Below, one piece after another: positions 6,872 to 36,070 of a stretch of 64,000 bases of DNA. The first letter of the stretch is position 1. The number at the start of each line of letters is the position of its first letter. Where the stretch lies: the IMG/VR virus record IMGVR_UViG_3300033066_001857, positions 5,002-69,001 of that record, one strand, 5' to 3'. The notes under the pieces were generated by a model. The model saw only the letters and a list, made by a program, of their open reading frames with translations. It was not told the origin of the DNA and searched no databases. Source of the stretch: a virus. Its lineage: Duplodnaviria; Caudoviricetes. The position numbers and the translations under genes are program-made.

Positions 6872-7248
6872 TATTGGAGGAATTTGAGCTTATACAAAGT
6901 TTGGGCAGCAAGTTTAGAAAGGCTATCCATCTCATTTAAGATCCAGCTTTCTTTATACTGTGATCGACTAGCATCAATCATACTATAGAAGTTTTGCACA
7001 AAAGATACCGGCTCTTCATATGTACTTTGTGGGATTGTGATATCCTGAAGTCCATAAATACCCTGGATGGATTCTACAAGTCCGTCAGTAATATCCAAAA
7101 CTTCATCGTAGAATTCGTTCATGGCTTTGTGTGCAGCATAACTTCCAGTCCCCTTAAGTTTTAGGTGGATGATGTGTGCAGTGTCTCTTGCCTGAAATAG
7201 CTTCGACAAGAACTCATTTGACCGGTTGGGTCTGGGAATAGTTGCCAT
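6871..7248 (-). CDS. Ferritin/Dps-like four-helix protein (DUF5856-like)
   Basis: 125 aa; HIIHL...SYAAHKAMNEFYDEVLDITDGLVESIQG pattern; TAATG-coupled to both neighbours. Confidence 0.7.
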   Translation of the reverse strand: MATIPRPNRSNEFLSKLFQARDTAHIIHLKLKGTGSYAAHKAMNEFYDEVLDITDGLVESIQGIYGLQDITIPQSTYEEPVSFVQNFYSMIDASRSQYKESWILNEMDSLSKLAAQTLYKLKFLQ

Positions 7249-10200
7249 TATCTGAACGATTTAATTTGTTTTTGACGAGTTAAGAGTAAGAGCATCTTGA
7301 CATTTCCAGACACATTTTTCCGCAGTATTAAAGCGGTACTGTTGTGCCGGATCTTCTTCTTGTTAGAGGACGTCTTGGTATAATCTAAGTTATTAGAGTT
7401 CAATATCTTCTTATAACCATTTGTCTGAGTCTTAAAGATCGTTCTCCAGTTTGTAGTAAACTGACCACGATTCTTTGTCATATCCCAGAACTGATTAAAG
7501 CGATACTTCTGCTCTTGCTTGCTTACTTCTATCTCAACGCCATTGCTTGTAACTTTAGGATAGTTCAGGATTAAAAACGGGCGGTTATATTCTCTTGGAA
7601 TAAGCTTCAACAGGCCAGAACATTGTTCTGAGTTATAAATAACAGCCCTGTCAAAGTTTTCATCCAAGATGTGAAAACGGTCGTCGTCGAAATATTTAAA
7701 GCATTCTAATTGATACTCAATACTTTCCAAGGAAGTTACTTCGTTTGCGTCAGAGTATGAATACTCTACTTCCCATGGATACTCTACGTCGTAGAACACG
7801 CAATAGGAATCTTTGGTGTCGTTATGCTTCCAGATATAAGAATTCTTGAAGCTGTGGAAGTGAGTGTATCCCTGGATAACCCAGTCCGGATGCCAGTCGT
7901 GAAAGCTCACCCAAGATTTGATTTTGGGATCATAAGAGAGTGTCCAGCTAGCATCATTGAAAAATCTAGGGTCTCCCAAGATGAAGCGTGAACCTCTGGC
8001 AAGCTTAAATTCATCTCCACCAAGATATTCCACAAGTCCGACAAACTCTTCCTTGAGTTCATAGTCCTTTTTGGAAAAATACAATACCTCATTTGTATTG
8101 TCAAATACAGAGAGGCATCCCACTCCTGATACCGGGTTATCGTACAGTTCAAAAGTAGGGAACTGCTTCAATAGTTTTGAAGGCAGTTGCTCTGCCAGCC
8201 ACCACTTAAGTCCGACTGAGATATCCTCAATTTGACCAGTGTAATGCAGAATCTTCCCCTGACGTTGCGAAATATAGAAAACACCATACTGCGTACTCAC
8301 GACGGAGAACCCAGATTGACATTCGCTAAACTCAAAGTCAGAATTGGAAACAGACTGAGGCTGTCTTGCAAACAGTTCCCCATCCCCAATAGTAATCTTA
8401 ATGCCAGCACTTGTATGCATTTCATCTACACCCACATGGAGTTTTGTAGAAGAATTTTCAAAAAAGTACAAGGCTCCTGTACGATTAACTTCTTTGATTG
8501 TACTGATTTTACCATCAGCTTTCGGGAAAATAAAGTTATTATTTACCAGAAAATCTCTCCATGTATCTCTTTTGCTTTCAAGATTTGAGGGAAGAGAGTA
8601 AATCAGCTTATTTGGTTCATATGCAAAACACTTTGCATTTGCAATAGAAAAGTCCCGGAGCTGCACCTGTCCATAGGTAAGGTTCAGCTGCTTTATCGGA
8701 GAAAGAGATTTGTCTATCTTGAAGTAGTTATCCTCTCTTATGATATCGCTTCTGAACAGAATTGTGAGGTCTGTAGAGAACTCTTTGTCGTAGTGCCTGG
8801 TAGCATCTTCCGCAGTAGAGTTTTCCCGGAAAGGAAGATTGTAAGAGCTTTCTACAAAGAATCTTACAACTGCAGAATTGTAAAGATAGAAGTAACCGTT
8901 CTTTACAACAAATGAAAGCTTTGATTTACAGTCGCTATGTTTACGATCCAGATAATGTAAATCATTTGGGAGCTGGATATTTGTCAGTCTAAAGAACTGA
9001 GAAATATCGTACTCGTGCGAATCCATCCAATACCTCGGAAAGGTAATGTTTGGATACATTCTATAATCAAACTCGAAGCCATTTGGGACATCATAGGCAG
9101 TCTGATTAAAGAAGTGCATCTTACGTTTGAGAGTAAACTCATCAATAATAGTATCCCCACCAAAGATTATATCCGAAGCAGCCTTTGTTCCCTCTTCAAC
9201 AGGGAATACCTGGGCAGCAGTCGGAATAAGTCTTGCTGAATCTACCTGTCCATACTGAGATTTAAGTTTCTTCCGTATAGAGACGTAGTATGCAGAAGCG
9301 GTGGTTTCAAAAGGTTTTGTTGGATCTGCCCATAATTGCTTTGTTCCAATTGTCTGACGCGTATCATCTACGGTCGTAGGATCAGCAATTGTATCATTAA
9401 GCTTCATGATAACAGAAGATTCCCTAAGGTTATTGTTTACGCGATAGCCATCAAACTCTTGATGGCCGGAAAACAAATAACTGTAATCTTCAATTCTCCT
9501 AACCGTATTGTCTGACTTTGGACAAATCTGCTTTGAATATAACGCTTCAGCATTATATTGATAAGCATATTGTTGGAAAGGAATCAGTTGCTTTATGACC
9601 TCCAGGGTTTTTTGCGTTCCCTGAGAAAAGTAATAAGTAAATAAAACAGCACTGTTTGCAATTTTTAATACCGTAGGTATTTTATCAGCAGCGGTTTCCT
9701 CTACAGATCGTGAGGTAGCTCCCTTGCCTTTAAGAAGGCTGCTAAGGATACTTCCTATCGCACTGCTGCTAAATAAGTTGCTTACCAACGGTATTGGTTT
9801 ATAGGCCTTTGCACCTACCCCAAATATCTCAACGCTGCCCTCCACAATGGTTGGGTCAACATTGTAAGTTCGCTTCCCGGCAATGGCAAGGATTCCCTCA
9901 CCAATACCTACAACTGCAGAAGCGAAAAATGCAAAGTCCCTAATAAGTTTCTCCCTGGGGTGACGATATACCTGTTCAAAGGCACCTCGTACTTTCCCAG
10001 AATATTCTGCTTCGACCTTTAAAATAGGTCCCAATGTAGGATTAGCTAAGCTTGTTTCAGGAGAGTGAAACGTAAAGTGTTTTCTGCTAAAGGTTCCTAC
10101 CGACTTGTAGTCTTTCCCTTCACAGCCTCCCTTTACCTGCTTTGCAGATAAGAAGGGGTCTGTTCTCAGGTCGTTGAGAGGATAGTTTGGGTACAGGGTT

Positions 10201-11849
10201 TTCTTTTTCTCATTGAAGGAGGTAGGGCTTTCGTATTCGCCAGTATTATAAATAACTCCCTTAGCAACGATGTCACGATGGCCTTCTTTATCGGCCCTCA
10301 TAACTTCATACCCAACAATACCCGGAACAGGATCTCCATTCTCATCTTTTGGATACTCAATATTTTCCAGACGAAATCCCAGGATCAGAAGCTTCTTTTT
10401 AGTCTCATCATAGTTTGGAACCCTGCAGTTATCAGGGAATCTAAACAGACGCATCTTGTTACAGCTCAAAGACCCCCATACCTCACGGTTATCAGGATAA
10501 AGTTCTTCTGATTCATAGAAACCAAAGTCTCCTTCCATTACGGGATATTCAGACGCTGTAGAACCAGGATAGATCCTAGTTATAGAAGAGGTATCATGGA
10601 TCTCCCAGTTTTCTACTCTCTCCCCATTGCCATAAGCAATAGCATCCTTTCCAGATACAAGTTGTCTATCAGAACTGCTTGCTTCTCTGCCGACCAACGG
10701 AAATGCGGATGATCGGTGTCCTGTGTTGTATACAAATCTGATATACAAAGCTGTCGTTTCTCCCTTTGTATACCCGATTTTATTCCCATGTTTTCGATAA
10801 TAAGTTTCAGGAACTGCATAAGCTACCCATTTAGCCCTTATTTTATTTGCAAGGGGTTGATAATTAAATTCTTTTCTTGTTCTTACTGCGGTCTGTATCA
10901 AGTATTGATTTACCTGGTACATACCTTCTCCGCCTTCATAGTAGACGGATTGAAGAGGAAGAGTTTTTAGATCAATTGTGGGTTGATCTTGCTGTATATC
11001 GTCAATGAAAACTTTAGTCTGAGAGATGGGATAGTAGCCGAGGTTGCGAGCTGTGACCTGCTGGTTGATTGTAGAAATCAGAACCAGGGTATACTCACGG
11101 AAATCAATATCCAAGTTGGATAATTCTACTTCAATTGCCCCACCATTCCCTGTCCTTGTATAGACATACTGAGGATTGGAAATCATTAAATAGTCCGTTA
11201 TCCGGATCTCTTTGGAAGAGTAGGCAATAGCAACCCGATATGCACCATTAGGAAGGTTTCCTCCATCAGAATTTGCTAAGCTGAGCGAAGGAACCGTAAG
11301 CAATGGAGTGAGACGTAAGGCTTCACAATCCAGATCTGCTGTATTTTGAGGGATATCACACCCCCCAGCAGGATCTTTTACATACTTTTTTATATAAGGA
11401 ACATTGGAAATGTTCAGACTTCGTGCCGGATTTAAGCCGTCATTCCAGTAAATAGATTCTGTGCAATCATAGTTTTCTTTAGATACCCCTCCCCTTATAA
11501 GGTTGGATGTATTAAAGTTTAAGCACTTGTCATTTACAAGCTTTGTGTATGTGCACAGAACACTGTCAAATAACCCAATCTCAGAATCCGTATTATTGGT
11601 AGAAAAGATTGCATAAATCTTGTTCTTCAGCGGAATAGAGCCAATCAGTGTATAGGGAATATGCGAACATTTGAGAGTAGAGGGTTCGTTTCCAATTTTG
11701 AAAACATCACCTTGATGCGAATTCAGTGTTGCATTTATTGCACTCAGATATGTTCCTTCAGGAAGAAATCGAGGATCTAAGTCCTTGTTCATCCCCTTTG
11801 CAAAAAAGGAAGAATCAATTTTCTGATTATTTTGAAAGTTGTCAGCCAC
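7248..11849 (-). CDS. Tail muzzle / stabilization protein (crAss-like)
   Basis: 1533 aa; FAKGMNKDLDPRFLPEGTYLSAINA...GNEPS start and WVSFHDWHPD near the C-end; beta-rich; follows the ring genes. Confidence 0.75.
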   Translation of the reverse strand: MADNFQNNQKIDSSFFAKGMNKDLDPRFLPEGTYLSAINATLNSHQGDVFKIGNEPSTLKCSHIPYTLIGSIPLKNKIYAIFSTNNTDSEIGLFDSVLCTYTKLVNDKCLNFNTSNLIRGGVSKENYDCTESIYWNDGLNPARSLNISNVPYIKKYVKDPAGGCDIPQNTADLDCEALRLTPLLTVPSLSLANSDGGNLPNGAYRVAIAYSSKEIRITDYLMISNPQYVYTRTGNGGAIEVELSNLDIDFREYTLVLISTINQQVTARNLGYYPISQTKVFIDDIQQDQPTIDLKTLPLQSVYYEGGEGMYQVNQYLIQTAVRTRKEFNYQPLANKIRAKWVAYAVPETYYRKHGNKIGYTKGETTALYIRFVYNTGHRSSAFPLVGREASSSDRQLVSGKDAIAYGNGERVENWEIHDTSSITRIYPGSTASEYPVMEGDFGFYESEELYPDNREVWGSLSCNKMRLFRFPDNCRVPNYDETKKKLLILGFRLENIEYPKDENGDPVPGIVGYEVMRADKEGHRDIVAKGVIYNTGEYESPTSFNEKKKTLYPNYPLNDLRTDPFLSAKQVKGGCEGKDYKSVGTFSRKHFTFHSPETSLANPTLGPILKVEAEYSGKVRGAFEQVYRHPREKLIRDFAFFASAVVGIGEGILAIAGKRTYNVDPTIVEGSVEIFGVGAKAYKPIPLVSNLFSSSAIGSILSSLLKGKGATSRSVEETAADKIPTVLKIANSAVLFTYYFSQGTQKTLEVIKQLIPFQQYAYQYNAEALYSKQICPKSDNTVRRIEDYSYLFSGHQEFDGYRVNNNLRESSVIMKLNDTIADPTTVDDTRQTIGTKQLWADPTKPFETTASAYYVSIRKKLKSQYGQVDSARLIPTAAQVFPVEEGTKAASDIIFGGDTIIDEFTLKRKMHFFNQTAYDVPNGFEFDYRMYPNITFPRYWMDSHEYDISQFFRLTNIQLPNDLHYLDRKHSDCKSKLSFVVKNGYFYLYNSAVVRFFVESSYNLPFRENSTAEDATRHYDKEFSTDLTILFRSDIIREDNYFKIDKSLSPIKQLNLTYGQVQLRDFSIANAKCFAYEPNKLIYSLPSNLESKRDTWRDFLVNNNFIFPKADGKISTIKEVNRTGALYFFENSSTKLHVGVDEMHTSAGIKITIGDGELFARQPQSVSNSDFEFSECQSGFSVVSTQYGVFYISQRQGKILHYTGQIEDISVGLKWWLAEQLPSKLLKQFPTFELYDNPVSGVGCLSVFDNTNEVLYFSKKDYELKEEFVGLVEYLGGDEFKLARGSRFILGDPRFFNDASWTLSYDPKIKSWVSFHDWHPDWVIQGYTHFHSFKNSYIWKHNDTKDSYCVFYDVEYPWEVEYSYSDANEVTSLESIEYQLECFKYFDDDRFHILDENFDRAVIYNSEQCSGLLKLIPREYNRPFLILNYPKVTSNGVEIEVSKQEQKYRFNQFWDMTKNRGQFTTNWRTIFKTQTNGYKKILNSNNLDYTKTSSNKKKIRHNSTALILRKNVSGNVKMLLLLTRQKQIKSFR

Positions 11850-12042
11850 TGATATCGTATCGTTTTGTTTCGGAAATTTCTATCTCAAATACTTCGATCT
11901 CGCCATCTAAAGTTCCCAGTATGTAAATATGTCCAAGCGGTGTAATCTTTATACCAATAATAAGTCTTTCTAGCTGTTCGGGATCTGTACAGATATATAC
12001 AGTCTGCCCAATGTTGTACTTATTATTGATTTTTAATGGCAT
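11842..12042 (-). CDS. Small hypothetical protein
   Basis: 66 aa, KYNIGQTVYICTDPEQLER; overlap-coupled at both ends. Confidence 0.6.
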   Translation of the reverse strand: MPLKINNKYNIGQTVYICTDPEQLERLIIGIKITPLGHIYILGTLDGEIEVFEIEISETKRYDISG

Positions 12043-12857
12043 TAGATTATAATTGAAAAGTATCGTTTGTACATAGCTTCTCTGTTAATATCTAAGGTTT
12101 CCTGAATTTCTTTGAACTCTGGCATATTGGCAATGTTGTAAGCTTCACGTTTTGCGTATTGTAACTTCGGCATAATGTAAGCGAGTTTCCTCTCCGTATC
12201 CTCACCAGAGAAATACATATTTTCAAGAATTCTTTCTTTAATCGCGTACTCGTAGTATTCATTTATTAATGGGTGGTCGATAACCAACAGGTTACCTTCC
12301 TCATCTTCCAGGACCCCCTCGTAGTTTAGATATACCTTTCCAGAGCGAAGAGTAAGTCTTAAGAAGTTATCGTTTTGGATAACCCCAGCAACCTCACCAT
12401 GCTTAACTTGGTACATGGAGTGCTTTATATTAACTCTTTTTTCTATACGAAAGATCTTCTCGATGCTCGGAAGTACTTTCTGTACAATCACAAAGGTGTT
12501 GCCATCATCCCCGATATATACATCTCCGCAGCCATCCCCACAATCCACATTTATGTTCTCAGTAATATCCCCTTGTATTGCGGGTACTGAAGTCTTATAG
12601 TAAGTACAGACTACCGCAAAGTTTATACTTTCCAAATCATTGGGGAGCTTTAGGGAGTGGTTATTGAAGTCAATAAGCTTCTCCTTTGTTTTGGTAATAC
12701 GAAGGTTTAGCTGCTTGTTGATCTTCCTTACAATCTTAATAAGCTGTGAGGGATCAATCAGGCTTTCAGCATCATAGCCTGGCCAATCATCACTCACCGA
12801 ACTGAGAAGTTGATCGACCGTGCGATACTTAATTTTGTGGTCGAAGAATTTTGACAT
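12042..12857 (-). CDS. Tail ring / tubular protein (crAss-like)
   Basis: 271 aa; DEEGNLLVIDHPLINEYYEYAIKERILEN; position upstream of the muzzle gene. Confidence 0.55.
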   Translation of the reverse strand: MSKFFDHKIKYRTVDQLLSSVSDDWPGYDAESLIDPSQLIKIVRKINKQLNLRITKTKEKLIDFNNHSLKLPNDLESINFAVVCTYYKTSVPAIQGDITENINVDCGDGCGDVYIGDDGNTFVIVQKVLPSIEKIFRIEKRVNIKHSMYQVKHGEVAGVIQNDNFLRLTLRSGKVYLNYEGVLEDEEGNLLVIDHPLINEYYEYAIKERILENMYFSGEDTERKLAYIMPKLQYAKREAYNIANMPEFKEIQETLDINREAMYKRYFSIII

Positions 12858-13528
12858 TATTTACTGCTTTGCTTGTCAGGAATAGGATCTGTTGGAGTCT
12901 GAAGAGTGAAAGCAATATCCCTGAGAACCTCAGCCTGAACAGGACTTATGAGATAATCTGGAATACCCATTTCAATATTTTGAGCCGGGACACAGGGATC
13001 GATCTCCCCACAATCTGTCAAAGCTTCGCCATCCAGCACAGCCTCAAGACGAATTGCATCCCATTTTATATTGGGAAAATAAAGGTATCCGTTCAGATAC
13101 CAGAAGTACTTTGTCTTGTTGTATTTGAAATCTGTAGAGTTGGCCTTTTTCAGATACTGGAGGGGAGAGGTTTGTACGATTTGAATCTGGCCGTCAAGAG
13201 AGCTGACGAGACCGATGATTGGCATGTTGTAGCCTTTTAACAAAGGAGGGAGTTTGTTCTTCGTCCTCATAATCGTACAATCTGAGGAAATCCCTTCACA
13301 TTGAGCTTCTACCCGATCAACTTCTTTGAGTTCGATATAAGGTAGGGTGGTGAAGATAAACCGGATTTTATTTACCTTCATGTTCGCATCCTCACGATAG
13401 ATCATCAGAGCAAGGTGCTTTTTCAGGAGGGAGTAGATAAGCCTATCGCTTACATATCGAGTATCCTGAACAACCGCTTTACTCTGGTTGCGTATCTGAG
13501 AAATCAACTCTCCTATTGTTGTAGTCAT
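12857..13528 (-). CDS. Tail ring protein (crAss-like)
   Basis: 223 aa; MTTTIGELISQIRN...YVSDRLIYS...YFWYLNGYLYFPN pattern of crAss-like ring proteins. Confidence 0.55.
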   Translation of the reverse strand: MTTTIGELISQIRNQSKAVVQDTRYVSDRLIYSLLKKHLALMIYREDANMKVNKIRFIFTTLPYIELKEVDRVEAQCEGISSDCTIMRTKNKLPPLLKGYNMPIIGLVSSLDGQIQIVQTSPLQYLKKANSTDFKYNKTKYFWYLNGYLYFPNIKWDAIRLEAVLDGEALTDCGEIDPCVPAQNIEMGIPDYLISPVQAEVLRDIAFTLQTPTDPIPDKQSSK

Positions 13529-14084
13529 GCTTTTTAACTTTAATTCCCTTGTAGTCCTGAGATTTGAAAAAATTCGAAATCTTGGATATAGGGGAAACTT
13601 TTATATACCGGTTCCAATTTGAAGCAAACCCTGCAGAAACTTCTCGTTTGAACTTTCTACAGGGGACAAAGTACCACAGATCTCTACCTGCAAACTTGTA
13701 TTTTGTTCCGTAGTTGCTATAAAATATCTTGCATACATACTGGTTACTATCCCAGTTCTTGAAATTTATCTTCTTGTCGTGTTCGGAAGAGGTAATAGGA
13801 TCTACGATGACCTTCGCTCTAGGACAGGTCCCTATAAAAACATATCCGAGTTGTTCCGGAAATTCCACTCCATCACGGTGCTCTATTACCTTCTGTCTGA
13901 TCTTTTTGTTGAAAGCCAAAATAACCTTTTTAAAGGTTTGGAAATCAATATCGATTGAGGGATTCTTTTCCTTGAACCGTTTGAAAAGTTCTACGGAAAT
14001 TAGGTTTAGTCGAGCTCTCCGAAATCGAGGAGCAGTAACATCAGGCTTTTTATACCCCGGTTTCTTTGCAAAATATCCACACAC
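13479..14084 (-). CDS. IHF/HU-like protein of the crAss-like structural block
   Basis: 201 aa, basic; GVEFPEQLGYVFIG...WYFVPCRKFKREVS; GTG start uncertain. Confidence 0.5.
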   Translation of the reverse strand: MCGYFAKKPGYKKPDVTAPRFRRARLNLISVELFKRFKEKNPSIDIDFQTFKKVILAFNKKIRQKVIEHRDGVEFPEQLGYVFIGTCPRAKVIVDPITSSEHDKKINFKNWDSNQYVCKIFYSNYGTKYKFAGRDLWYFVPCRKFKREVSAGFASNWNRYIKVSPISKISNFFKSQDYKGIKVKKHDYNNRRVDFSDTQPE

Positions 14085-14875: not shown

Positions 14876-15382
14876 TTAGATTTGATTTTTTTTGAGTATT
14901 CTCTCCCTATTCTTAAGATACCATTCTCTTTTATACTTCTTTAAATCTTTACATCTGCCATCTTTATATTTGGGGAGTTTTTCTGGGCTAGTACAGACAT
15001 GTAATTTGTTTTCAATAGCATGTTTTAAATTTTCTGCTATTGATACATATTCTAAGTTGGAGGGATGATTGTTTAATTTATTACAATCTTTGTGGTTAAC
15101 AGTGAGTCCTGGAGGACGTTCTCCGAGAAATAATTTTGCCACAATTGAGTGAACTGTAGTTCCTTTATTTGAAAGTTTAACCTTTAAATATCCATCCTTA
15201 TTTAAAAATTGAGAAAGCTCTCTTCCTTTTGCATGTTTAGAGTCAGAAAAAATTCTTACCTTCCCTGAATCCAAAACCTCTACCCTATAGTATGGAGCAA
15301 TATGAAGCATCATTTCTTTACATAAAGTTAGGGTAAATTGGTAATTATCCAAAAAATTTATTTGGAAGTTCAAAACTTTCAT
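14876..15382 (-). CDS. HNH homing endonuclease
   Basis: GYLKVKL...VHSIVAKLF...VNHKDCNKLNNHPSNLEYVSIAENLKH; basic C-terminal DNA-binding tail. Confidence 0.85.
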   Translation of the reverse strand: MKVLNFQINFLDNYQFTLTLCKEMMLHIAPYYRVEVLDSGKVRIFSDSKHAKGRELSQFLNKDGYLKVKLSNKGTTVHSIVAKLFLGERPPGLTVNHKDCNKLNNHPSNLEYVSIAENLKHAIENKLHVCTSPEKLPKYKDGRCKDLKKYKREWYLKNRERILKKNQI

Positions 15383-19243: not shown

Positions 19244-21532
19244 CTATGCCAAACCTTCTTCTTGGAGGATCTCCTGAAGCTTCTGTCGGTCAATTTGAAC
19301 CTTATTCCAGCCTTTTTGATAGGTATCATCATACCTTCCAGTTTTTGACCAGTGGTAATGATGGACAATTGCATTCTCTGCCCGCATTGCCTGATCCAGC
19401 CTTTTAGCACGTGCCCAAAGCAAATTGTCGACTCCGCAGTGATGTAAACGAGGATCGAAGATCTGGCCGTTTAGGAGATGGACCAGGTCCCTGTGTATAA
19501 TGAAATGCTCGCAGATATTTCCCTCATCCTCCAGGAGGGGGCCGGTATTGAAGGATACCAGTTTCTTAGAGTTCTCTACAGATACCCGGATAGCTTCTTT
19601 TAAAGCCGAAGGAGTAAACTCTGTGTCATTGGCCATGTAACAGATATATTCCCCGGTAGCTGTCTCCAGGGATGCCTGGACCTTATTAGGGACCGATTCC
19701 GGGCCTTTGGAGACAATCACCTCTATAGCCCTGGAAGGATAGTCAAGGGCGTAAATGCTCTCTAATAGCTTCTGGAGGCCAAAGGTCCTATCCATATGTG
19801 GCACAAGGATGCTTACTTTAGGGTATTTGGTAAGAACTGTGCCAAAACTCCAGTTTTCCATCACTACACCCTGGCTTTCAATCTGAAGCTCTGGGAACAG
19901 CTCCAGGAAGTTTCTAAAGCTTTCCTGGGTATATGCATGCATGTGCTGATTATGACTATAGTATGGGTCCATGGTATTGATACCCCCCTGGTCAGGAAGG
20001 ACAATGATCATCTTCCCGAGCGGTTTGAGTATTCTAATCCATTCGCGGAGAGTTTTGACCGGATCGAGCATATGCTCAAAAGAGTGTCTGGAGATAATTG
20101 TATCGGCATTGTTGTCCCCAAAAGGAAGCTTATCTATGCTGCAGGTTATATCGGACACAGGTCGCACATCAACTCCTACAGCATTTTCTGTTGTTTTGTG
20201 GCTACCACAGCCCAGATCCAAAATAAGTCCTTCCTTGAGTGCAGCAAGAGCATACAGTCTTTCAGGATGCTCTGCCTGTGGAATAGTAAAGTTGTTTTGA
20301 GCAGGTTTCATTTCAGGATAGAGCTCTTCAAAAGATTCTTTCGTAATCTGAAAGGTTCGAGTGTTTCCAATATAAGGATCAAAAGCTGATCCAGCATCAA
20401 TGCAAGTAAGATTTCTATTCTTAGATAACAGATTTGAAATCAATACTTTAGATAGCATTCCTGCACAAAAGACGTAGATCGCGTTATCTTGCGGAACAAG
20501 CTTACTGTCAATATCTGAAATACTCGAATAAGCATTCAGTAAAGGTACTTCTACAAAGACAGTTGCTTTTAAAAGCTTTGTGATAGGTTCCAGTCTCTGA
20601 GGGGCGACAAAAACTACGGTTCTGCCACTCTCGGCTATTGCTCGATAGAAGTTTCTGACCTTAGTCAGTTCTGAATCGGTTCTGTGTAAGAGGATATTGT
20701 ATTCTTTCTGCTTGTCAAAATCGACAATTGTTACTTCTGGCATCAAAGCCATGGAAGAATACGCTTTGATCAGTCCGTCTGCAAGCTCTGCGGAGTACGG
20801 GTGTCCATCACAATTAGCACCAGGGTTTCCTGTCATACAGGCAAGTTCCCCGTCTCCCCTTTTTACAAAAGAGAAATTAATGCCATTCTTGATATTAAAA
20901 ATGAATTTGTCAAGTCTTCCTTCTGTCCAACTCTTTGCAAAGTGGTGGATACAAATTGTATTTTCAGTAAAGTTGGATTCCCCTGTCAGATTGTTGTAGG
21001 GATAGAAAACATCAGGTTCAGCAATTCTCATCTTGTCCTGATACCTAACTCCGATCTTGTTTAAAAGATCCATGGAGGATTCATAACAAAGCTCATCATC
21101 CCCCCTGAATCCTTCCTCAACAGTTTTTATCCATTCTTGGACAAGCGGGTGGCCTGACTCTGAACCGACCACCGCTGTCCCGAGAACCGTGAACGTTTCC
21201 GTACTCAGTTCTTTTCCTACAAAAAATGGGCTTCCCATCCAACTATCAAAATTCTTCCCTGCAAGGATTTCTACGTCTGCATCCAAATATATTCCACCCT
21301 CTGTGAGGAGATAGTGCATGCGGAGATAATCAGAAGCCTTACACCACTTCTTTGAAAGATGGGGGCTGTTCAGGCACTCCTGCATGTACTTCGAATCTTT
21401 AAAACAATTTTCCAGGGTTATAAGACGATGCTCATATCCAGGAAGTTTATGCGTTTCGATACAGCGCTGAATGAACTCAGGAATAATTCCGTCCTTATTC
21501 AGCCATACTGTAAATATCCTCTTTGGTATCAT
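19244..21532 (-). CDS. Four-domain fusion: DXD sugar transferase (GT32-like) + GT-D-like + class I SAM methyltransferase + GT2
   Basis: MIPKRIFTVW...GGIYLDADVE; FSFVKRGDGE...IDAGSAFDPY; ILDLGCGS...SRHSFEHM; PKVSILVPHMDR...YICYMANDTE. Confidence 0.75.
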   Translation of the reverse strand: MIPKRIFTVWLNKDGIIPEFIQRCIETHKLPGYEHRLITLENCFKDSKYMQECLNSPHLSKKWCKASDYLRMHYLLTEGGIYLDADVEILAGKNFDSWMGSPFFVGKELSTETFTVLGTAVVGSESGHPLVQEWIKTVEEGFRGDDELCYESSMDLLNKIGVRYQDKMRIAEPDVFYPYNNLTGESNFTENTICIHHFAKSWTEGRLDKFIFNIKNGINFSFVKRGDGELACMTGNPGANCDGHPYSAELADGLIKAYSSMALMPEVTIVDFDKQKEYNILLHRTDSELTKVRNFYRAIAESGRTVVFVAPQRLEPITKLLKATVFVEVPLLNAYSSISDIDSKLVPQDNAIYVFCAGMLSKVLISNLLSKNRNLTCIDAGSAFDPYIGNTRTFQITKESFEELYPEMKPAQNNFTIPQAEHPERLYALAALKEGLILDLGCGSHKTTENAVGVDVRPVSDITCSIDKLPFGDNNADTIISRHSFEHMLDPVKTLREWIRILKPLGKMIIVLPDQGGINTMDPYYSHNQHMHAYTQESFRNFLELFPELQIESQGVVMENWSFGTVLTKYPKVSILVPHMDRTFGLQKLLESIYALDYPSRAIEVIVSKGPESVPNKVQASLETATGEYICYMANDTEFTPSALKEAIRVSVENSKKLVSFNTGPLLEDEGNICEHFIIHRDLVHLLNGQIFDPRLHHCGVDNLLWARAKRLDQAMRAENAIVHHYHWSKTGRYDDTYQKGWNKVQIDRQKLQEILQEEGLA

Positions 21533-23270
21533 TTTTAACAGTTTCGCGTTTTGAAAGATCTACCCACCAGATTGTACGTTCAATTCCATCAGGATGACCA
21601 AAAACCTCATCTACGGCTTGGATAACCCCCATCCAGGAGAGCTGATAGTCATGCCCGCAGATCATCCCTGTTTTCTTAACTTTTGGTAGCCATGCTGCAA
21701 TGTCATCACGAATGCTTTCATAGTCATGCCCTGCATCAATAAAGACCATATCCAGAGATTCATCTTCGAACTGTTTTGCAGCTTCCAACGAAGTCATCTT
21801 CATGATTGAAGGAGCAACTGTTGTCTTTGCTGTACTGATGTTCCTTTGGAATTGTGAGAATACATCTTCTTGTTTTGCTACATAGAACGTGGTATCTCTT
21901 ACGTCTGTAGATCCTTCCCAGGTATCCACGCAGGTAATACTACCATTTTCTCCAAAAGCTTTAGCACTTCCGCTTATAAGAGCATGGGTAGAGCGACCTT
22001 TCCAACTTCCGATTTCAACAATAGTTTTATACTTCTTGGCACTGTTATACAAAAACTGCAGCTCTGCAAACTGCATCCATCCCTCAATTCCATTATCAGG
22101 ATACTCGAAATAGTACTGGGTATCCCTGAGATATATAGGATTAAGTTCCTGATACTCAAGGCATTTCAAGAGGTGTTTCTGAGCTTCTTGAATGTTGCCT
22201 AACCATCCTTTGGCCCAGTACAGAATTTCATGAGGGACATGGGTATAGTCACTCATGTTATTTGCATAAAAGCCATTGTATGGTATTTCCAGAGCTGCAG
22301 CTGCATAACAGGCTGCGGATTGGTAATTGTTATTGCTTTTGAAAAAGAGTGCTAATCTCAAAAGAGGTTCTCTCCTGGAACCCTCTATATAAAATGCTTT
22401 ATTATAATACTCGACTTGCTTGTCTGGTTGGTTTATCATGCCATAACAATCACCAATATACACAGCCGATTGAGAGCGTTCTGTTTGCCAGCGATTCATG
22501 TTAATGTGTCTCTCAAACTCTTTGATTGCTGATTTAGGACGTCCGTTCCACATCAGTTCCCTGGCAAAATAATGGCTTTGTCTGTCAGCATCAGGGTGAT
22601 TAAAACAGTCTAAAGCCAATCCTTTTAAATAAGAATGTCTTTCTGTATCTCCATTTTGGTAATGCTCAAGCTTATACTTCTCTTCCGGGAGGAACATTCT
22701 TTTTGGAATCATTCCAGGAAGAGGCTGGAGAACCTCATGTATAATACCTGTCCAGTGCATTACCCTTCTGTCGTAAGCCTTGCTTTGAATAAACTTTACT
22801 GCTTCTTTCCCAAAGTGATCTTTTGCAAATACAAAGTTGTATTCAAATTGAGTTACTCCATCTGCAATCAACTTATTTACATACTCAATATTAAGCATGG
22901 CATTCACTTCATCTGCGTCATAGCAGAAGATCAGGTCATTGCTTGCCATATGAGCAGCATAGTTTCTTGCAGAGGAGTAATCAAAAAATGTATCCCCGCC
23001 TTTGACTGCATCTCTTTCTTCATCGACAATAAACCGTTCGTTGATAGCCTTTGCAGTATCCATGTCGATTGTGAAAATAAACTTCTTTCCTACTTCTTCT
23101 ACTTTGCAGCCAAGACTTCGCGCAATATCTGCGGTACCATCGTCTGAGCCCGTATCTAAAATACAAATCTCCCCACCAGACTCTTGAAAATCCTTAAGGG
23201 ATGCAACAAGTCTAGGGAGAGTTTCCCGTTCATTTTTTGCAATGACTACGATACTAAAGGTTGGTTTCAT
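21495..23270 (-). CDS. GT2 glycosyltransferase + TPR repeats + SAM methyltransferase (Methyltransf_24-like)
   Basis: FSIVVIAKNE...CILDTGSDD...FCYDADE; helical TPR-like middle; IVEIGSWKGRST...LDMVFIDAGHDYE...GHDY. Confidence 0.8.
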   Translation of the reverse strand: MKPTFSIVVIAKNERETLPRLVASLKDFQESGGEICILDTGSDDGTADIARSLGCKVEEVGKKFIFTIDMDTAKAINERFIVDEERDAVKGGDTFFDYSSARNYAAHMASNDLIFCYDADEVNAMLNIEYVNKLIADGVTQFEYNFVFAKDHFGKEAVKFIQSKAYDRRVMHWTGIIHEVLQPLPGMIPKRMFLPEEKYKLEHYQNGDTERHSYLKGLALDCFNHPDADRQSHYFARELMWNGRPKSAIKEFERHINMNRWQTERSQSAVYIGDCYGMINQPDKQVEYYNKAFYIEGSRREPLLRLALFFKSNNNYQSAACYAAAALEIPYNGFYANNMSDYTHVPHEILYWAKGWLGNIQEAQKHLLKCLEYQELNPIYLRDTQYYFEYPDNGIEGWMQFAELQFLYNSAKKYKTIVEIGSWKGRSTHALISGSAKAFGENGSITCVDTWEGSTDVRDTTFYVAKQEDVFSQFQRNISTAKTTVAPSIMKMTSLEAAKQFEDESLDMVFIDAGHDYESIRDDIAAWLPKVKKTGMICGHDYQLSWMGVIQAVDEVFGHPDGIERTIWWVDLSKRETVKNDTKEDIYSMAE

Positions 23271-23497
23271 TATCGATTATTTAAAGCTGAAGATAAAGAA
23301 TAACTATTTGCTGTTTTCTTACTTGACGACTGGTAAGCAAAAGCAGATGCTGCTCCAGCGGGACCAGTATATCCTGTATATCCCATAAAACTACCAGCTC
23401 CTGTGTAGCCAGTATATCCCCTAGGCCCAGTAAATCCCCTAGATCGACGCTCCTGTCCAGAGCCTCCTGAACTGCGACTAGGAGAACTTAAAAAGGG
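23270..23497 (-). CDS. -1 frame extension (73 aa, with GYT repeats) of the 71-aa ORF via a putative programmed frameshift
   Basis: Open from CCC TTT TTA: [53 protein letters not shown]...NNR*; its TAA (23272-23270) overlaps the ATG of the GT2-TPR gene. Confidence 0.6.
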   Translation of the reverse strand, partial: PFLSSPSRSSGGSGQERRSRGFTGPRGYTGYTGAGSFMGYTGYTGPAGAASAFAYQSSSKKTANSYSLSSALNNR

Positions 23498-23703
23498 CTG
23501 ATAACAATTTCTACGTTATCCGGTTTTTCTGCAAACTGGGAAGGAATTTCCCGTGTAATGTGAAACAGAAGTTCGCTTTCTGTTTTAGCGAGAGCTGTTT
23601 TGGGGTCCATGATGACTTTGGTGTCTTTGTACTCTTCTTTACCGTTGAGGTATTCGTACTCATGGAGCAGTACATAGTACTGGAATAGTTGTTTCTTCTT
23701 CAT
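23488..23703 (-). CDS. 71-aa protein ending ...VEIVISPF at a slippery sequence
   Basis: MKKKQLFQYYVLLHE...; last codons AGC CCT TTT TAA. Confidence 0.7.
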   Translation of the reverse strand: MKKKQLFQYYVLLHEYEYLNGKEEYKDTKVIMDPKTALAKTESELLFHITREIPSQFAEKPDNVEIVISPF

Positions 23704-23783: not shown

Positions 23784-24449
23784 TTAGTATGTTCCTGGCG
23801 TCGAGACTTGGTAGGATACTCCTCCGGGAGTAGATCTCCGGAATTGAACTGTGTAAGTAAGAATGATTTGACCATCAAATCCTGAATAACCTGGCGCACC
23901 AGAGTCAATCTCTGATCCACCACCGCCCCCGCCTGTAGATAGGGCATCTGATCCACCAAATCCTGGATAGGTATCTCCTGCACCACCTCCTGTTGATCCT
24001 CCTGACGTACCGCTTCCATTAGTACCATTCCCAGAACTGGAAGCCGCACCTCCACCACCCCCACCACTTTGAGCGGCACCTATAGCACCGTCTCCACCAG
24101 AGAATTTTGTATCACCTGTACCAGAAGCTGCTGCTCCACCAGAACCTTGGGTTTGACCAGAAGCACCTCCTCCACCTTTGGCAACACAGGTTGTGGTATT
24201 GAAGGTTGTATCTTCGCCAGCAACCTCTGGTCCTCCACCTGTACCAACATAGTAACTATATGATACTCCGGGAGTTACAGAGAAAGTTTTTAGAGAATAA
24301 GCTCCACCCCCGCCACCACCAGTTCCAGTGAGGCCAGTAGGAGCACCCCCACCACCACCTGCTCCATAGCATTCAATTGCTACTGAATGCACGCCAGCGG
24401 GGCAGAGCCAAGACCCTGCCCCTGGAGTATTAAAAGTTTCGGTAGCCAT
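23784..24449 (-). CDS. Glycine-rich virion/tail protein
   Basis: TFNTPGAGSWLCPAGVHSVAIECYGAGGGGG...GGGGGGAY...GQIILTY, a phage glycine-rich domain pattern. Confidence 0.7.
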   Translation of the reverse strand: MATETFNTPGAGSWLCPAGVHSVAIECYGAGGGGGAPTGLTGTGGGGGGAYSLKTFSVTPGVSYSYYVGTGGGPEVAGEDTTFNTTTCVAKGGGGASGQTQGSGGAAASGTGDTKFSGGDGAIGAAQSGGGGGGAASSSGNGTNGSGTSGGSTGGGAGDTYPGFGGSDALSTGGGGGGSEIDSGAPGYSGFDGQIILTYTVQFRRSTPGGVSYQVSTPGTY

Positions 24450-27400
24450 TAAGTACAGTTTCCATTAGTGACGTAGAGATAAACACCTATCAGTTTGGCT
24501 GTTGCTGCCAAAGTGTCATTTGCATTTCCACCAGTTGCATCCCTACTAACCCTGAATTGAACCACATTTGCCGATCCTCCAAGATATCCAGCCGGAGTAA
24601 AGGGACTTGTGATATTTGATATGTGGATTTGGTAAGCAGTTGTTGTATTAGCTTCTGTCCGTTTTTGAATGGTTGACCATGTCCTATCTATAGTACTAGC
24701 CCCTTGCCATGCACAGGCTTCGATACCCCACTCTACGATATTTGTAGAAGTAGAGTTTGCAGTCCATACAAAGGATGCAGTCATATTTGTCATGTCAATA
24801 CTACAAGGAATCAGCGTTGTCCATTCTGTATACAGAAGCGATCCATCTGCATAGTCAAAGAACTGCATGTTCTGCTTGTTTGTTGAAGTCTCGTATTGTG
24901 ATGCGTATGCAGTTCCGCTTGTCGTAGACGGCCAACCACCTGCTCCCAGAATAATAACAGGAGAAGCTATAGGGCCAGTATAACCGGTATAACCAGTTCT
25001 TCCTGTATACCCTGTGTAACCGGTATAGCCAGTTGCACCTGCTCCAGAAGGGCCAGTATATCCAGTAGCACCAATAGGTCCAGTATAGCCGGTGTACCCA
25101 GTGTAACCCGTAAAGTTACCGGCTCCAGTGTACCCTGTAAATCCTGTATAGCCAGTATAGCCAGTCCTACCGGTGTATCCTGTATATCCCGTGTATCCAG
25201 TGTAACCAGTAAAATTGCCAGCTCCGGTATAACCCGTATACCCTGTATATCCAGTAGCACCCTGGGTTCCGTTAGGACCGGTGTATCCCGTGTAACCAGT
25301 ATAACCCGTGAAGTTGCCCGCTCCTGTATACCCTGTGTATCCAGTATAGCCTGTTCTTCCTGTATATCCAGTATAGCCGGTATAGCCAGTACTTCCCACA
25401 CCTGCAGGGCCAGTGTACCCTGTATAACCAGTATATCCAGTCGCTCCGGCTCCGGTATATCCGGTATATCCCGTATATCCGGTAAAGTTACCTGCACCTG
25501 TATACCCCGTATACCCGGTGTAGCCAGTAGCTCCCTGTGCACCATTTGGTCCAGTGTATCCGGTATAGCCCGTGTACCCTGTGAAATTACCTGCGCCAGT
25601 ATATCCGGTATAGCCTGTATAACCCGTAGGTCCTTGTGATCCGTTGGGACCGGTATATCCGGTATAACCTGTGTATCCAGTAAAGTTTCCAGCTCCTGTA
25701 TATCCAGTGTAACCCGTATATCCTGTTCTACCAGTATATCCAGTATATCCTGTATAGCCGGTATAACCAGTAAAGTTACCAGCCCCGGTATAGCCTGTGT
25801 ATCCAGTTGTTCCTTGCGGGCCCGTGTATCCAGTGTACCCAGTATACCCAGTAAAGTTTCCTGCACCAGTGTATCCTGTGTAACCAGTCGATCCAACAGG
25901 TCCAACTGGTCCTGTATAGCCTGTATAACCCGTATAACCAGTATAACCGGTAAATGCTCCTGCTCCAGTATACCCCGTGTATCCAGTCGGGCCAGTATAA
26001 CCAGTGTATCCAGTAAATGCTCCTGCACCTGTATATCCAGTGTAACCTGTATAGCCGGTATATCCAGTATAGCCAGTAGATCCAGCACCTGCGGGTCCCG
26101 TATATCCAGTGTAACCAGTTGTACCAACCCCTGTATATCCCGTATATCCGGTGTATCCAGTCGCACCAGTTGCTGAGGCTATACCTTGTGGGCCCGTATA
26201 GCCCGTGTAACCTGTGTATCCAGTGCTACCTGCATTTCCCTGAGGTCCTGTATAACCTGTCGGACCAGTATAACCAGTAGATCCTTGTGCACCTTGTGTA
26301 CCGGTATAACCTGTGTATCCCGTATATCCTGTTGCTCCCTGAGAACCAGGTGTACCGGTATAACCTGTATACCCAGTGTAGCCAGTAAAGTTGCCAGGGC
26401 CTGTATAACCAGTATATCCAGTTGGTCCCTGCGGACCTGTGTATCCGGTATAACCAGTAGTTCCCTGAGATCCTGCAGGTCCAGTGTAGCCAGTATAGCC
26501 AGTAGTTCCTGCAGGTCCGGTATAACCTGTATAACCTGTAGTTCCAGCCCCTGTGTAACCCGTGTAACCAGTATATCCCGTAAAGTTACCAGCACCAGTA
26601 TAACCAGTATATCCCGTGGTTCCGGCAGTTCCCGTGTAACCAGTAAAACCTGTATAACCGGTGTATCCCGTTCTACCAGTATAACCTGTGTAACCGGTTA
26701 TTGAAGGTCCTGTATAACCCGTATAGCCTGTAAAGTTTCCTGCCCCCGTATAACCGGTATACCCAGTAGCCCCTGTTCCTCCGGCACCCGTATAACCGGT
26801 ATAACCAGTATGCCCAGTATAACCAGTTGGGCCATAGTTTCCAGTTGTGACAAGCCATGTGTTTGTGGCAGTTTTAACCAGTGCCACAACAGCATATTGG
26901 CCACTTAAGGTTGTAGATGTAGCTTCGACAGTTACACCTCCTGCACCTGCTATGGATGTTGTTCCTGTACCACCTTGTTCAACGACAATCTGAGAGCCGA
27001 TAGGGAATGCTACGGAGGCATTTGTTGGGATTGTAACAGTATTGGGGGAAGCCGATACCATTTTTACACCCTGCCCTTTATCAGAAAGAGCCAGTGTGTA
27101 ATCAGTAACCTGTGTTGTAAACACAAGTGTATCGGGACCTGTATACCCTGTATAACCAGTTGCACCGGCTAAACCAGTGTAACCTGTATAACCAGTTGTA
27201 CCCGTTGTACCAGCACCTGTGTAACCTGTATAACCTGTGTAACCAGTAGGTCCATGTGCACCGCTTCCATTTACTACAAATCGTCCTGCAAACCGCTGAT
27301 CGGGATCAGACGGAACGCACATTGTAACGTTGTTTGTATCAGCCTCTACGATGGACCCAACTAACGTTTGAGCAGGAGTACCTGTTTCATCCCATACCTC

Positions 27401-33277: not shown

Positions 33278-36070
33278 TTAAATTGAATAAGCTCCTATAT
33301 TAAACATTATATCAAGACCTAAATTACTAGCAGCAGCAGGACCAGTATATCCGGTATATCCGGTATACCCTGTGTAGCCTGTATATCCTGTAGGACCATA
33401 GTTACCTGTTGTCACAAGCCAAGTATCTGTTGCTGTCTTGATAAGACATACTACCGAGTACTGACCACTCATAGTTAAAGTTGTTGCTTCTAATGTGACA
33501 CCAACTCCTGCAACTATTGTAGTTGTACCTGCACCTGCTTGTTCAATAATAATCTGCGTTCCTATTGGGAAGTTTACTGTTCCACTTGGAGGCACAGTTA
33601 AGTTGTTAGCTGTTGCCACATCCATTTTTACTCCTGTTCCTGCATCAGATAGAGCTAATGTATATGAAGCAGTCTGAGTAGTAAACCCTAATGTATTTGG
33701 TCCGGTATATCCCGTATACCCAGTAGCTCCAGCCCCAGCAGGACCTGTATATCCCGTATATCCAGTGTAACCGGTAGATCCTGCACCAGCAGGTCCTGTA
33801 TATCCAGTTGCACCAGTATAACCAGTATAACCTGTTGATCCGGCTCCTGCAGCACCTGTGTAACCAGTGTACCCTGTATATCCAGTAGGACCTGTATAAC
33901 CAGTATACCCAGTAAAGTTCCCTGCTCCTGTGTAGCCAGTATAGCCCGTATAACCAGTAGTTCCGGTTGTGCCAGCTCCGGTATAACCAGTATAACCAGT
34001 GTATCCGGTGAAATTTCCGGCTCCGGTATACCCTGTATATCCTGTGGGACCTTGGGGACCAGTATAGCCAGTGTAGCCGGTATAGCCGGTGTAACCTGTA
34101 TATCCAGTAAAATTGCCCGCCCCGGTGTATCCAGTATAACCTGTTGCACCTTGAGGACCGGTATATCCGGTTGGACCGGTATAACCTGTATATCCTGTAT
34201 ATCCTGTGAAATTACCCGCACCCGTGTATCCAGTGTATCCAGTATAGCCGGTCGCTCCAATTGGGCCAGTATAGCCTGTATATCCGGTATAACCCGTGAA
34301 GTTTCCAGCACCTGTATAGCCAGTGTATCCAGTAGGGCCTTGAGGTCCAGTATATCCTGTGTACCCCGTATAACCAGTATAGCCAGTGAAGTTACCTGCC
34401 CCAGTGTAGCCGGTATAACCAGTGTAACCAGTTCTACCAGTATAGCCTGTATAGCCAGTGTAACCGGTGTAACCAGTAAAGTTACCTGCGCCGGTGTACC
34501 CAGTATATCCAGTAGTACCAGTTGGACCAGTGTAACCGGTGTACCCCGTATAGCCGGTGTACCCTGTAAAGTTCCCTGCTCCAGTATAACCTGTATAACC
34601 AGTCGGGCCCTGCGGTCCAGTATAACCGGTATAACCTGTATATCCAGTGTAGCCAGTAAAGTTTCCAGCTCCGGTATATCCGGTATATCCAGTATAGCCC
34701 GTGGTTCCAGCTCCAGTATATCCAGTATAGCCGGTATATCCTGTTGCACCCAGACCTGTATATCCTGTGTATCCTGTGTATCCGGTGAAGTTTCCAGGTC
34801 CGGTGTAACCAGTATATCCGGTTTGGCCCTGGGGACCGGTGTAACCCGTATATCCAGTATATCCGGTGTAGCCAGTAAAATTACCAGGTCCAGTGTAACC
34901 CGTATAACCAGTCTGTCCCTGTGTACCGGTATACCCTGTATAACCAGTTGTACCAATTGATCCCTGTGCACCGGTATATCCAGTAGGTCCAGTATATCCG
35001 GTATAACCGGTGTAGCCAGTCTGTCCTATTGAACCTGTATATCCAGTATATCCGGTATATCCAGTGTAGCCAGTGTATCCAGTGTAACCGGTAAAATTAC
35101 CCGCACCTGTATAACCGGTGTAACCCGTAGCTCCGTATCCGGTGTAACCTGTATAGCCCGTAGCTCCATCAGCACCACCACCATTGATGACTATTCGTCC
35201 TGCAAATCTGCCATCCGGAGTATCTGGTACATAGAAGGTATAGTTGTTATTGTCTGTTTGCTCTACCTTTTCAACCATGATCTGAGAGGAGACAGAGGTC
35301 TCGTCCCAGATTTGGAATACCAGATTTTTGGTATTCAAGTTATGGTTCACTACAATGGAGTAGTAGCCACCTGATGGACCACTCCAGTCTGTTGTAGCAT
35401 TGAATACCTGAGTAAATGCTGGAAGACCAGGACCTGTATAACCTGTAGCACCAGTATAACCGGTGTAACCGGTATAACCGGTGAATGCGCCTGGACCCGT
35501 ATAACCAGTGTATCCGGTTTGTCCGGTATAACCAGTGTTTCCAATTGGTCCGGTATATCCAGTGTATCCTGTGTAGCCTGTAGTACCTATTGATCCCGTA
35601 AATCCTGTATAACCAGTCTGTCCGGTATATCCAGTGTATCCCGTGAAGGCACCTGCTCCGGTATAACCAGTGTAGCCTGTTTGTCCAGTGTATCCAGTAT
35701 AACCAGTATATCCAGTTCTACCGGTAGGACCTTGCGGACCAACCGCACCAGTATAACCCGTATATCCTGTAAATCCGGTATATCCAGTAAATGCTCCAGC
35801 TCCCGTGTACCCAGTATAACCTGTTGTACCAAGAGGCCCCGTGTAACCTGTATATCCAGTATAACCGGTTGAACCAATTGTTCCGGTATAACCAGTATAA
35901 CCCGTATAACCAGTAAAACCCTTAAAGCAAAGCTTCTTGAGAATTACATTTAGGCTATCTGTACAAGTAAAGCATTCGGTATCCCCACCATCGTATCGGA
36001 TCTCAGAGGATTTAGAAGGCTTTCCAACAGTGTTACATGAAGCCTTGTTATATTTTGGCAATTCGTTCAT
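33278..36070 (-). CDS. Collagen-like fibre with Gly-Tyr-Thr repeats (fibre B)
   Basis: 930 aa; short Cys-containing N-domain, long (GYT)n tracts, and the same two inserted modules as fibre A. Confidence 0.8.
33340..35920 (-). repeat. (GGN TAY ACN)n Gly-Tyr-Thr coding repeats, fibre B
   Basis: 9-nt periodicity with varied third positions. Confidence 0.9.

Follow-up and report, generated by a model that had tools for sequence, protein, structure and literature searches.

In phage lambda the tail assembly chaperone is made as gpG and, by a -1 frameshift, as gpGT (Xu, Hendrix and Duda 2004, as cited in PMC10885494). There, an X XXY YYZ heptamer close to the 3' end of a small open reading frame (ORF) allows a conserved -1 slip; the outcome is a short protein together with a version lengthened at its C-terminus, and the arrangement has persisted in very divergent phages although their sequences have drifted. 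These features are shared by the gene described here, which is located on the minus strand (23488-23703) of a 64,000-nucleotide (nt) stretch of DNA from a virus of the Caudoviricetes (Duplodnaviria; IMG/VR record IMGVR_UViG_3300033066_001857, positions 5,002 to 69,001); the whole of this stretch is called the window below. The ORF encodes 71 amino acids (aa). An earlier interpretation made from the letters of the window (the sequence-only reading) had proposed that a -1 frameshift at its end gives rise to a second product of about 144 aa, and the comparison of relatives now lends strong support to the two products. Programmed -1 ribosomal frameshifting is very probably real at this gene and conserved in evolution, and the small phage proteins to which its product belongs form an unannotated family.

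The locus differs from lambda G/GT in several respects. The 71-aa protein has no chaperone match in Pfam or PHROGs, and fold searches gave no convincing match. The gene is not located between genes for a tail tube and a tape measure; in the window it lies between a Gly-rich, fibre-associated gene and glycosyltransferases, and in relatives beside RecA, MazG, SbcC and SNF2 helicase genes. The heptamer of the family abuts the stop codon, and the extension appears to be a low-complexity tether, unlike the folded T domain of lambda. Closer in layout is gene 10A/10B of phage T7, where the slip is also located at the very end of the ORF and the long form is the whole short form with a modest C-terminal addition; T7 gene 10, however, encodes the major capsid protein and not a domain of about 70 aa. 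The Escherichia coli dnaX gene (tau/gamma, slip on A AAA AAG) resembles the family in its bacterial-type -1 shift, in a hairpin a few nt downstream and in isoforms with a common N-terminal part, but the shift truncates the dnaX product whereas it extends the phage product, and the upstream Shine-Dalgarno (SD)-like element of dnaX is not conserved in the family. The heptamer of the window, C CCU UUU, is also the slip site for NS1' of flaviviruses such as West Nile and Japanese encephalitis viruses (bioRxiv 10.1101/2024.10.16.618579). There, too, a structure follows the identical heptamer after a short spacer, but the flavivirus stimulator is a pseudoknot and the heptamer has no stop codon next to it; these are eukaryotic RNA viruses, unrelated by descent to the phage family.

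The 3' end of the 71-aa ORF reads AGC CCT TTT TAA on the minus strand. The heptamer (23491-23497) falls on the last two sense codons, in X XXY YYZ register in the frame of the ORF, and is followed directly by the zero-frame stop UAA (23488-23490), which sets the -Pro-Phe C-terminus of the short form. The -1 frame opens six codons upstream of the Pro-Phe codons, which are read in both frames, and continues for 73 codons past the slip site (23273-23491, minus strand; L-S-S-P ... N-N-R) to a TAA at 23272-23270. In translation the 71 aa and the 73-residue tail add up to a predicted long isoform of 144 aa, the C-terminal part of which carries the motif N-S-Y-S-L-S-S-A-L-N-N (23276-23308, minus strand), recognized by comparison within the family. 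The long form would have about 15 kDa against 8 kDa for the short form, and its predicted junction peptide is ...NVEIVISPF-LSSPSR. The last A of the -1 stop is the first base of the ATG (23270-23268) of a 591-aa gene with GT2, TPR and methyltransferase domains (21495-23270, minus strand; ORF list and domain search), so that stop and start overlap as TAATG (23268-23272). Heptamer, open frame and overlap thus stand as the sequence-only reading had given them. The sole ATG, GTG or TTG of the -1 frame in the window is the ATG at 23386, codon 36 of the extension. An AU-rich leader precedes the ATG of the glycosyltransferase (GT) gene, and independent initiation of that gene is therefore possible.

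By sequence, the 71-aa protein is a member of an unnamed family of phage proteins of about 70 aa which end in ...VEIxI[RS][PN]F. An exhaustive phmmer search of 1.84 billion representatives returned 60 homologues at E<=1e-3, 14 of them at E<=1e-10, with a best E of 6e-21. Nearly all are 62-81 aa long, and their C-termini coincide with that of the query; a search for close relatives gave one, P0002, which is 89% identical. Most of the homologues end in ...VEIxIRPF, in agreement with the RPF ending that the sequence-only reading had given for related small phage proteins. A profile search gave 78 clusters; those that come with a source name are all called 'hypothetical protein'. Overall the family numbers more than 140 clusters. 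Neither Pfam nor PHROGs contains a match for the 71-aa protein. Neither the DNA of this region nor the 71-aa protein (tblastn) matched cultured or deposited phages, and a single-protein search for related loci with the 71-aa protein found none. When other family members were searched by tblastn against about 50,700 phage records, only the unannotated, uncultured 735-kb megaphage LR756501/LR756503 was found. The N-terminal domain (71 aa) is predicted to fold as beta-beta-alpha-beta, with a mean predicted local distance difference test (pLDDT) score of 93 from AlphaFold2. Foldseek against the PDB gave no match at E<=0.001 (best: phi29 p6 at E 0.28 and an archaeal ribosomal protein at E 0.5), VIA-align reached Z of at most 5.9 with generic beta-alpha folds, BFVD gave no match, and the ESM Atlas returned unnamed viral clusters only. 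A weak 9-bit repeat match to TRAP (MtrB), from a profile search against PDB sequences, was judged to be chance. The frameshift mechanism is textbook knowledge; the gene family and its recoding are new, neither of them appearing in Pfam, PHROGs, the records of cultured phages or the literature searched.

Viral, metagenome and genome contigs were scanned with sub-alignments of the family, which gave 42 distinct loci including the window, with 26-64% GC. Two further loci conform as well: one in megaphage LR756501 and one on a contig of an Ignavibacteriales metagenome-assembled genome. A perfect in-frame heptamer (CCCTTTT, CCCTTTC, CCCTTTG, AAATTTT or AAATTTC) is present in 38 of the 42 loci, and the stop follows it directly in 40; in L061 and L052 another codon stands between them. 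Termini in R-P-F are written CGC CCT TTY and those in R-N-F AGA (or CGA) AAT TTY, and the corresponding codons of the window are AGC CCT TTT. In the codon preceding these last two, the third base follows the heptamer although the amino acid varies. CGC makes up 9.5% of the Arg codons of the AT-rich loci, yet it is used at 14 of 16 sites before CCT, and all nine codons before AAT end in A. In the GC-rich loci CCT accounts for 15.5% of the Pro codons, yet for 15 of 15 sites. These figures indicate a constraint at the nucleotide level, beyond what the protein sequence needs. Homologues without the heptamer or without an open -1 frame had been named beforehand as the result that would speak against frameshifting; the 42 loci do not show this pattern.

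In every complete locus of this set the -1 frame is open for 45-154 codons, and it is general in the family that the -1 ORF ends within a few bases of the next gene or overlaps it. The other frames close early: the +1 frame after 1-16 codons in AT-rich loci, and the zero frame 2-8 codons after the stop in relatives; in the window the zero frame stays open past UAA for 68 codons. Depending on the locus, the earliest start codon available in the -1 frame lies anywhere from codon 0 to codon 53, and in L036, L039 and L076 the -1 ORF lacks ATG, GTG and TTG altogether; the frame thus reads as coding, with conserved ends, but without an initiation site of its own. The -1 products share the start F-L-x-x-P, and nearly all of them carry a Tyr-centred motif 7-16 residues from the end (e.g., NSYSLTSALN, NSYTLSSALNN, SYTASQV). 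This motif takes the form [ST]-N-S-Y-[ST]-L-[ST]-[ST]-A-[LM]-N in the AT-rich clade and S-Y-[TNS]-A-[SA]-x-[LV] in the GC-rich phages. The end of the window tail, ...ANSYSLSSALNNR, aligns with ...SNSYTLSSALNNKL of L041, the N-domains of the two being 46% identical, and end motifs are shared even by loci whose N-domains are 40-50% identical. A second copy of the C-terminal motif was searched for in the window and none was found. The middle of the extension varies in length and sequence and is rich in S, T, N, G and A. Some eight family members in the databases have the domain and a tail of this kind joined in frame; among these fusions, P0120 has exactly the predicted junction, RPF-L, and P0063 was seen on 17 contigs. 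In a natural fusion the middle part is predicted as coil, with pLDDT of 54-66, which fits a flexible, probably disordered tether that presents the terminal motif.

A putative stimulatory stem-loop (23435-23485, minus strand) follows the heptamer of the window after a 5-nt spacer. In its outer stem, UCUCCUAG(UC) at 23485-23476 pairs with (GA)U-CUAGGGGA at 23447-23435. This stem, the one drawn in the sequence-only reading, is the minimum free energy (MFE) fold of a 57-nt segment (-20.1 kcal/mol, z -1.71), and UCUCCUAG/CUAGGGGA is an 8-bp perfect helix in a helix scan. In a longer segment of 91 nt the 5' arm can alternatively pair with a second CUAGGGG copy. The scan took the best perfect helix with a 5' arm starting 3-9 nt after the heptamer; a helix of at least 8 bp was found in 18 of 40 loci, whereas among 7,555 control positions taken from these loci the share was 11.8% (p about 4e-11, Mann-Whitney test). 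Spacers in the family are typically 4-7 nt, and helix sequences are unrelated between clades. For the 70 nt that follow the stop, MFE z averages -1.49; two control segments average -0.41 and -0.35. The R-N-F sub-clade has an extended hairpin of about 70 nt with compensatory changes in 4 of 27 pairs. The hairpin of the window and the enrichment in the family together point to a downstream stimulatory structure. An upstream SD-like stimulator was also considered as a conserved element and rejected, being present in only 13 of the 42 loci.

From these signals and their conservation, which are observed, we infer slippage of some efficiency, a part for the stop codon and functions for the two isoforms. 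Most ribosomes would probably end translation at UAA, so that the 71-aa beta-beta-alpha-beta domain is set free with its -Pro-Phe terminus. Some would slip back by one base on C CCU UUU, with tRNA-Pro moving from CCU to CCC and tRNA-Phe from UUU to UUU, probably assisted by the hairpin 5 nt downstream. The stop codon after the heptamer is slowly decoded and may also assist. Slipped ribosomes would read 73 more codons and complete the 144-aa protein, the added part being a polar tether that ends in the conserved Tyr motif (NSYSLSSALN). On present comparisons the best-supported mechanism is tandem -1 slippage of the canonical kind, in which the hairpin stimulates the slip on the heptamer. The adjacent stop may set the -Pro-Phe end of the short form, or give a 'shifty stop' pause, or both, since the two explanations are compatible. 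The short and long products may be made at a fixed ratio, and a loop pairing with GGGCCU (23428-23423) could form a pseudoknot, both as suggested earlier.

Several observations weigh against a conserved programmed frameshift. The first triplet is imperfect in three loci, L032, L071 and L072, where the sequences TCCTTTT, GTCTTTT and ACCTTTT occur with the U run kept. L052 reads CGC CCT TTT AAA TAG, one T fewer than the consensus, and its tail lies in the +1 frame, where it retains the family end motif (...SISYNMADAM; L052:2700-2900); this locus is either a natural frameshift knockout or a homopolymer error. The loci are related, and the counts are not fully independent. The ratio of nonsynonymous to synonymous substitution rates (dN/dS) of the whole extension is high in close pairs (0.45-1.16), also in its middle part, and saturated in distant ones, so that only the two ends are under clear purifying selection. 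In the window itself the fold z-scores are modest, about -1.7, and the heptamer alone is not significant, being common in an AT-rich genome: 77 in-frame heptamers occur in 20,440 codons, and of the 64 minus-strand ORFs 4 carry such a heptamer on the final two sense codons. It is therefore the comparison with homologues that carries the case.

That the downstream frame is the unexpressed, decayed remnant of a fibre-like gene, split by a 1-nt indel or by insertion of a glycosyltransferase cassette, could be suspected because the Gly-X-Y (GXY) stretch of the window is 78-82% identical to repeats of the two fibre genes at the nucleotide level and has no start of its own; collagen repeats, moreover, tend to keep several frames open, as seen in the 68 open codons of the zero frame. 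A remnant is nevertheless very improbable, given that the two-frame layout, the heptamer and the C-terminal motif occur in at least 40 loci, most of them without collagen repeats or nearby fibre genes, that the conserved parts are the non-collagen ends (LSSP..., ...NSYSLSSALNN), and that the N-domain is unrelated to the N-termini of the fibres. Only slightly less improbable are two separate genes, with the tail translated either as a peptide of 38 aa that begins at the ATG of 23386 or through a non-canonical start or reinitiation after UAA, and with the heptamer reduced to mere Pro-Phe codons. The ATG does exist, Pro-Phe is conserved at the protein level, and in loci ending in TGA the codon overlapping the stop is TTG. 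Against this, the first -1 start wanders or is missing altogether in the way described above, the conserved F-L-x-x-P lies upstream of any start, the in-frame fusions unite both parts, and a constraint on the protein explains neither the counts for CGC and CCT nor the switch to AGA-AAT-TTT. An error of sequencing or assembly in the T5 run, the true gene being a single in-frame ORF of 144 codons, would agree with the homopolymer included in CCCTTTTT, with the database relatives that are in-frame fusions and with the single T by which L052 differs. A contig of a different study (X3, 296 nt; 23373-23668), however, is identical across the slip site without gaps, which makes an assembly error very unlikely; contig X1 covers the whole stretch, and in the Logan contigs of four runs the slip site is free of indels. 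An indel here had been named as a point that could overturn the sequence-only reading, and the independent contig speaks against one. The frame break is also found in at least 40 assemblies from many projects, 13 of them with CCCTTTC and a T run of only 3, and an error is regarded as extremely unlikely.

Other routes to a long form have to be weighed as well. Shifty stop sites, such as A AAA UGA of potato virus M, have a slippery run directly before a stop, as does the phage family, and shifty stops are reportedly an established phenomenon. A single P-site slip of tRNA-Phe on U UUY with the stop in the A site would account for the adjacency of stop and heptamer in 40 of the 42 loci, and UUUU with a further U after it is retained at each of the three imperfect sites. 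The covariation of the first triplet (C CCU with CGC or AGC; A AAU with AGA or CGA), on the other hand, argues that the upstream tRNA re-pairs too, and the conserved hairpin fits ribosomal frameshifting; the full conserved heptamer together with the hairpin suggests a canonical cassette rather than a shifty stop. Transcriptional slippage is unlikely because the U runs number only 3-5, and such runs are too short for efficient slippage of RNA polymerase. Taken together, the P-site slip and transcriptional slippage form an unlikely source of the long form. Readthrough of UAA would extend the protein in the zero frame, and the 68 open codons past UAA in the window would permit it; since the zero frame of the relatives is shut within 2-8 codons of the stop, it is unlikely on that ground alone, and with all three stop codons in use in the family and none of the conserved motifs in the zero-frame peptide, its probability is close to nil. 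Programmed -1 frameshifting on the heptamer accordingly remains the favored reading of the locus.

The extension of the window contains a collagen-like Gly-X-Y stretch (G19-G46; 23354-23437, minus strand), with eight GXY triplets in two runs, five and then three, and a break between them. Beginning at codon 19, it starts upstream of the ATG at codon 36, which agrees with the earlier claim that the Gly-Tyr-Thr (GYT) repeat lies partly upstream of the only ATG. Pfam Collagen (PF01391) scores it at 14.8 bits, below the gathering threshold of 27.2. The GYT-coding DNA is 71-82% identical to many repeats of both giant fibre genes (33334-35937 and 25188-26615), as expected from the earlier remark that the tail carries the repeat of the fibres; because of this identity the stretch was probably copied from the fibre genes into the frameshifted tail. 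Among the loci studied it is specific to the phage of the window, apart from the megaphage copy. The latter (L078; LR756501.1, 258365-263565; 2701-3264) is a family member ending in ...VIVRPF, with CGC CCT TTT TAA, and its 188-codon -1 extension contains a true Collagen domain (Pfam 35.6 bits) of mostly G-T-S and G-S-S triplets; the long form of the megaphage should therefore trimerise. A Pfam search of six long extensions found only this collagen domain. A predicted complex of three copies of the 71-aa domain of the window scored 0.19 against a mark of 0.42, which speaks neither for nor against trimerisation. A known glycosylated collagen-like surface protein is BclA of Bacillus, in which GXT repeats are O-glycosylated on Thr. 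The window resembles it in having Gly-X-Thr triplets next to a cluster of glycosyltransferase genes, but its stretch comprises only 8 triplets and is sub-threshold for Pfam Collagen.

The gene of the window closes a fibre module: a Gly-Tyr-Thr fibre of 1,288 aa and a Gly-rich protein of 221 aa precede it, and two multi-domain glycosyltransferase genes follow directly. A multi-GT gene of 762 aa occupies 19244-21532. The 221-aa protein (23784-24449), encoded directly upstream of the frameshift gene, contains Gly_rich_2 (PF21722, 3e-10), and its PHROG match bears the annotation tail fibre assembly. In relatives, RecA/UvsX is found about 1.9 kb upstream in 11 of 41 loci, and the other neighbours vary; they include MazG, HNH, SbcC, SNF2 helicase, an AAA ATPase, a sigma factor and terminase. 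The genes which abut the extension in relatives are a helicase, UDP-glucose dehydrogenase and small unknown ORFs. In at least five related loci, genes for glycosyltransferases or sugar-nucleotide enzymes lie 0.2-2 kb, or one to three genes, downstream: GT6 in L026, GT11 and GT2 in L039, GT11 in L045, GT2 and a TOD1/MUCI70-like gene in L046, and UDP-glucose dehydrogenase in L053. Downstream glycosyltransferases in unrelated loci hint at a link to glycosylation. Frameshifting may meter translation of the coupled GT gene, as proposed earlier, a point which the comparison neither supports nor excludes, and that the long form may be a mini GT substrate is a reasonable speculation. The C-terminal Tyr motif could be a docking peptide or a strand for a partner.

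Similar arrangements were seen elsewhere in the window. A 195-aa ORF (59726-60313, minus strand) ends in T TTA AAA TGA, with a heptamer on its last two sense codons (59726-59735); its -1 frame continues for 247 codons and is the frame of the next gene (58992-59729), with an ATGA overlap. At 14891 the heptamer AAAAAAT is located four codons before the stop of the ORF 14876-15382, and the -1 frame enters the next gene. Both heptamers are probably due to chance at gene junctions rich in A/T. On the minus strand at 12857-14084, an ORF of 201 aa and one of 223 aa share 50 nt just upstream of a 271-aa ORF (12042-12857) and of a 1,533-aa ORF (7248-11849), the last of which is a possible tape measure; the overlapping pair may be the tail-chaperone frameshift of the phage.

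As to function, it is proposed tentatively, and with clear doubt, that the frameshift doses a filament-forming isoform: the long form would trimerise through its collagen-like segment and be glycosylated by the neighbouring glycosyltransferases, the Tyr motif would dock on a structure of the virion or the host, and the short form would cap or compete. If this were so, the family would be an adaptor or fibre system, dosed by frameshifting and widespread among uncultured phages, of which databases give no description, and the phage of the window would have copied its own fibre repeat into the frameshifted tail.

Few programmed frameshifts of phages are known outside the tail-chaperone genes, and gene callers miss them; the extension described here is invisible in every database record. 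The family appears to be a clean recoding cassette of heptamer, adjacent stop and hairpin, which spans 26-64% GC and reaches up to the largest known phage genome. It also provides natural controls in the form of in-frame fusions, a 1-nt deletion variant and imperfect heptamers. Annotation of the family would correct dozens to hundreds of phage genomes. The gene of the window, finally, ties a protein with a predicted frameshift to a module of Gly-Tyr-Thr fibre and glycosyltransferases, and would be a small, tractable substrate for the question of whether glycosyltransferases modify GYT repeats.

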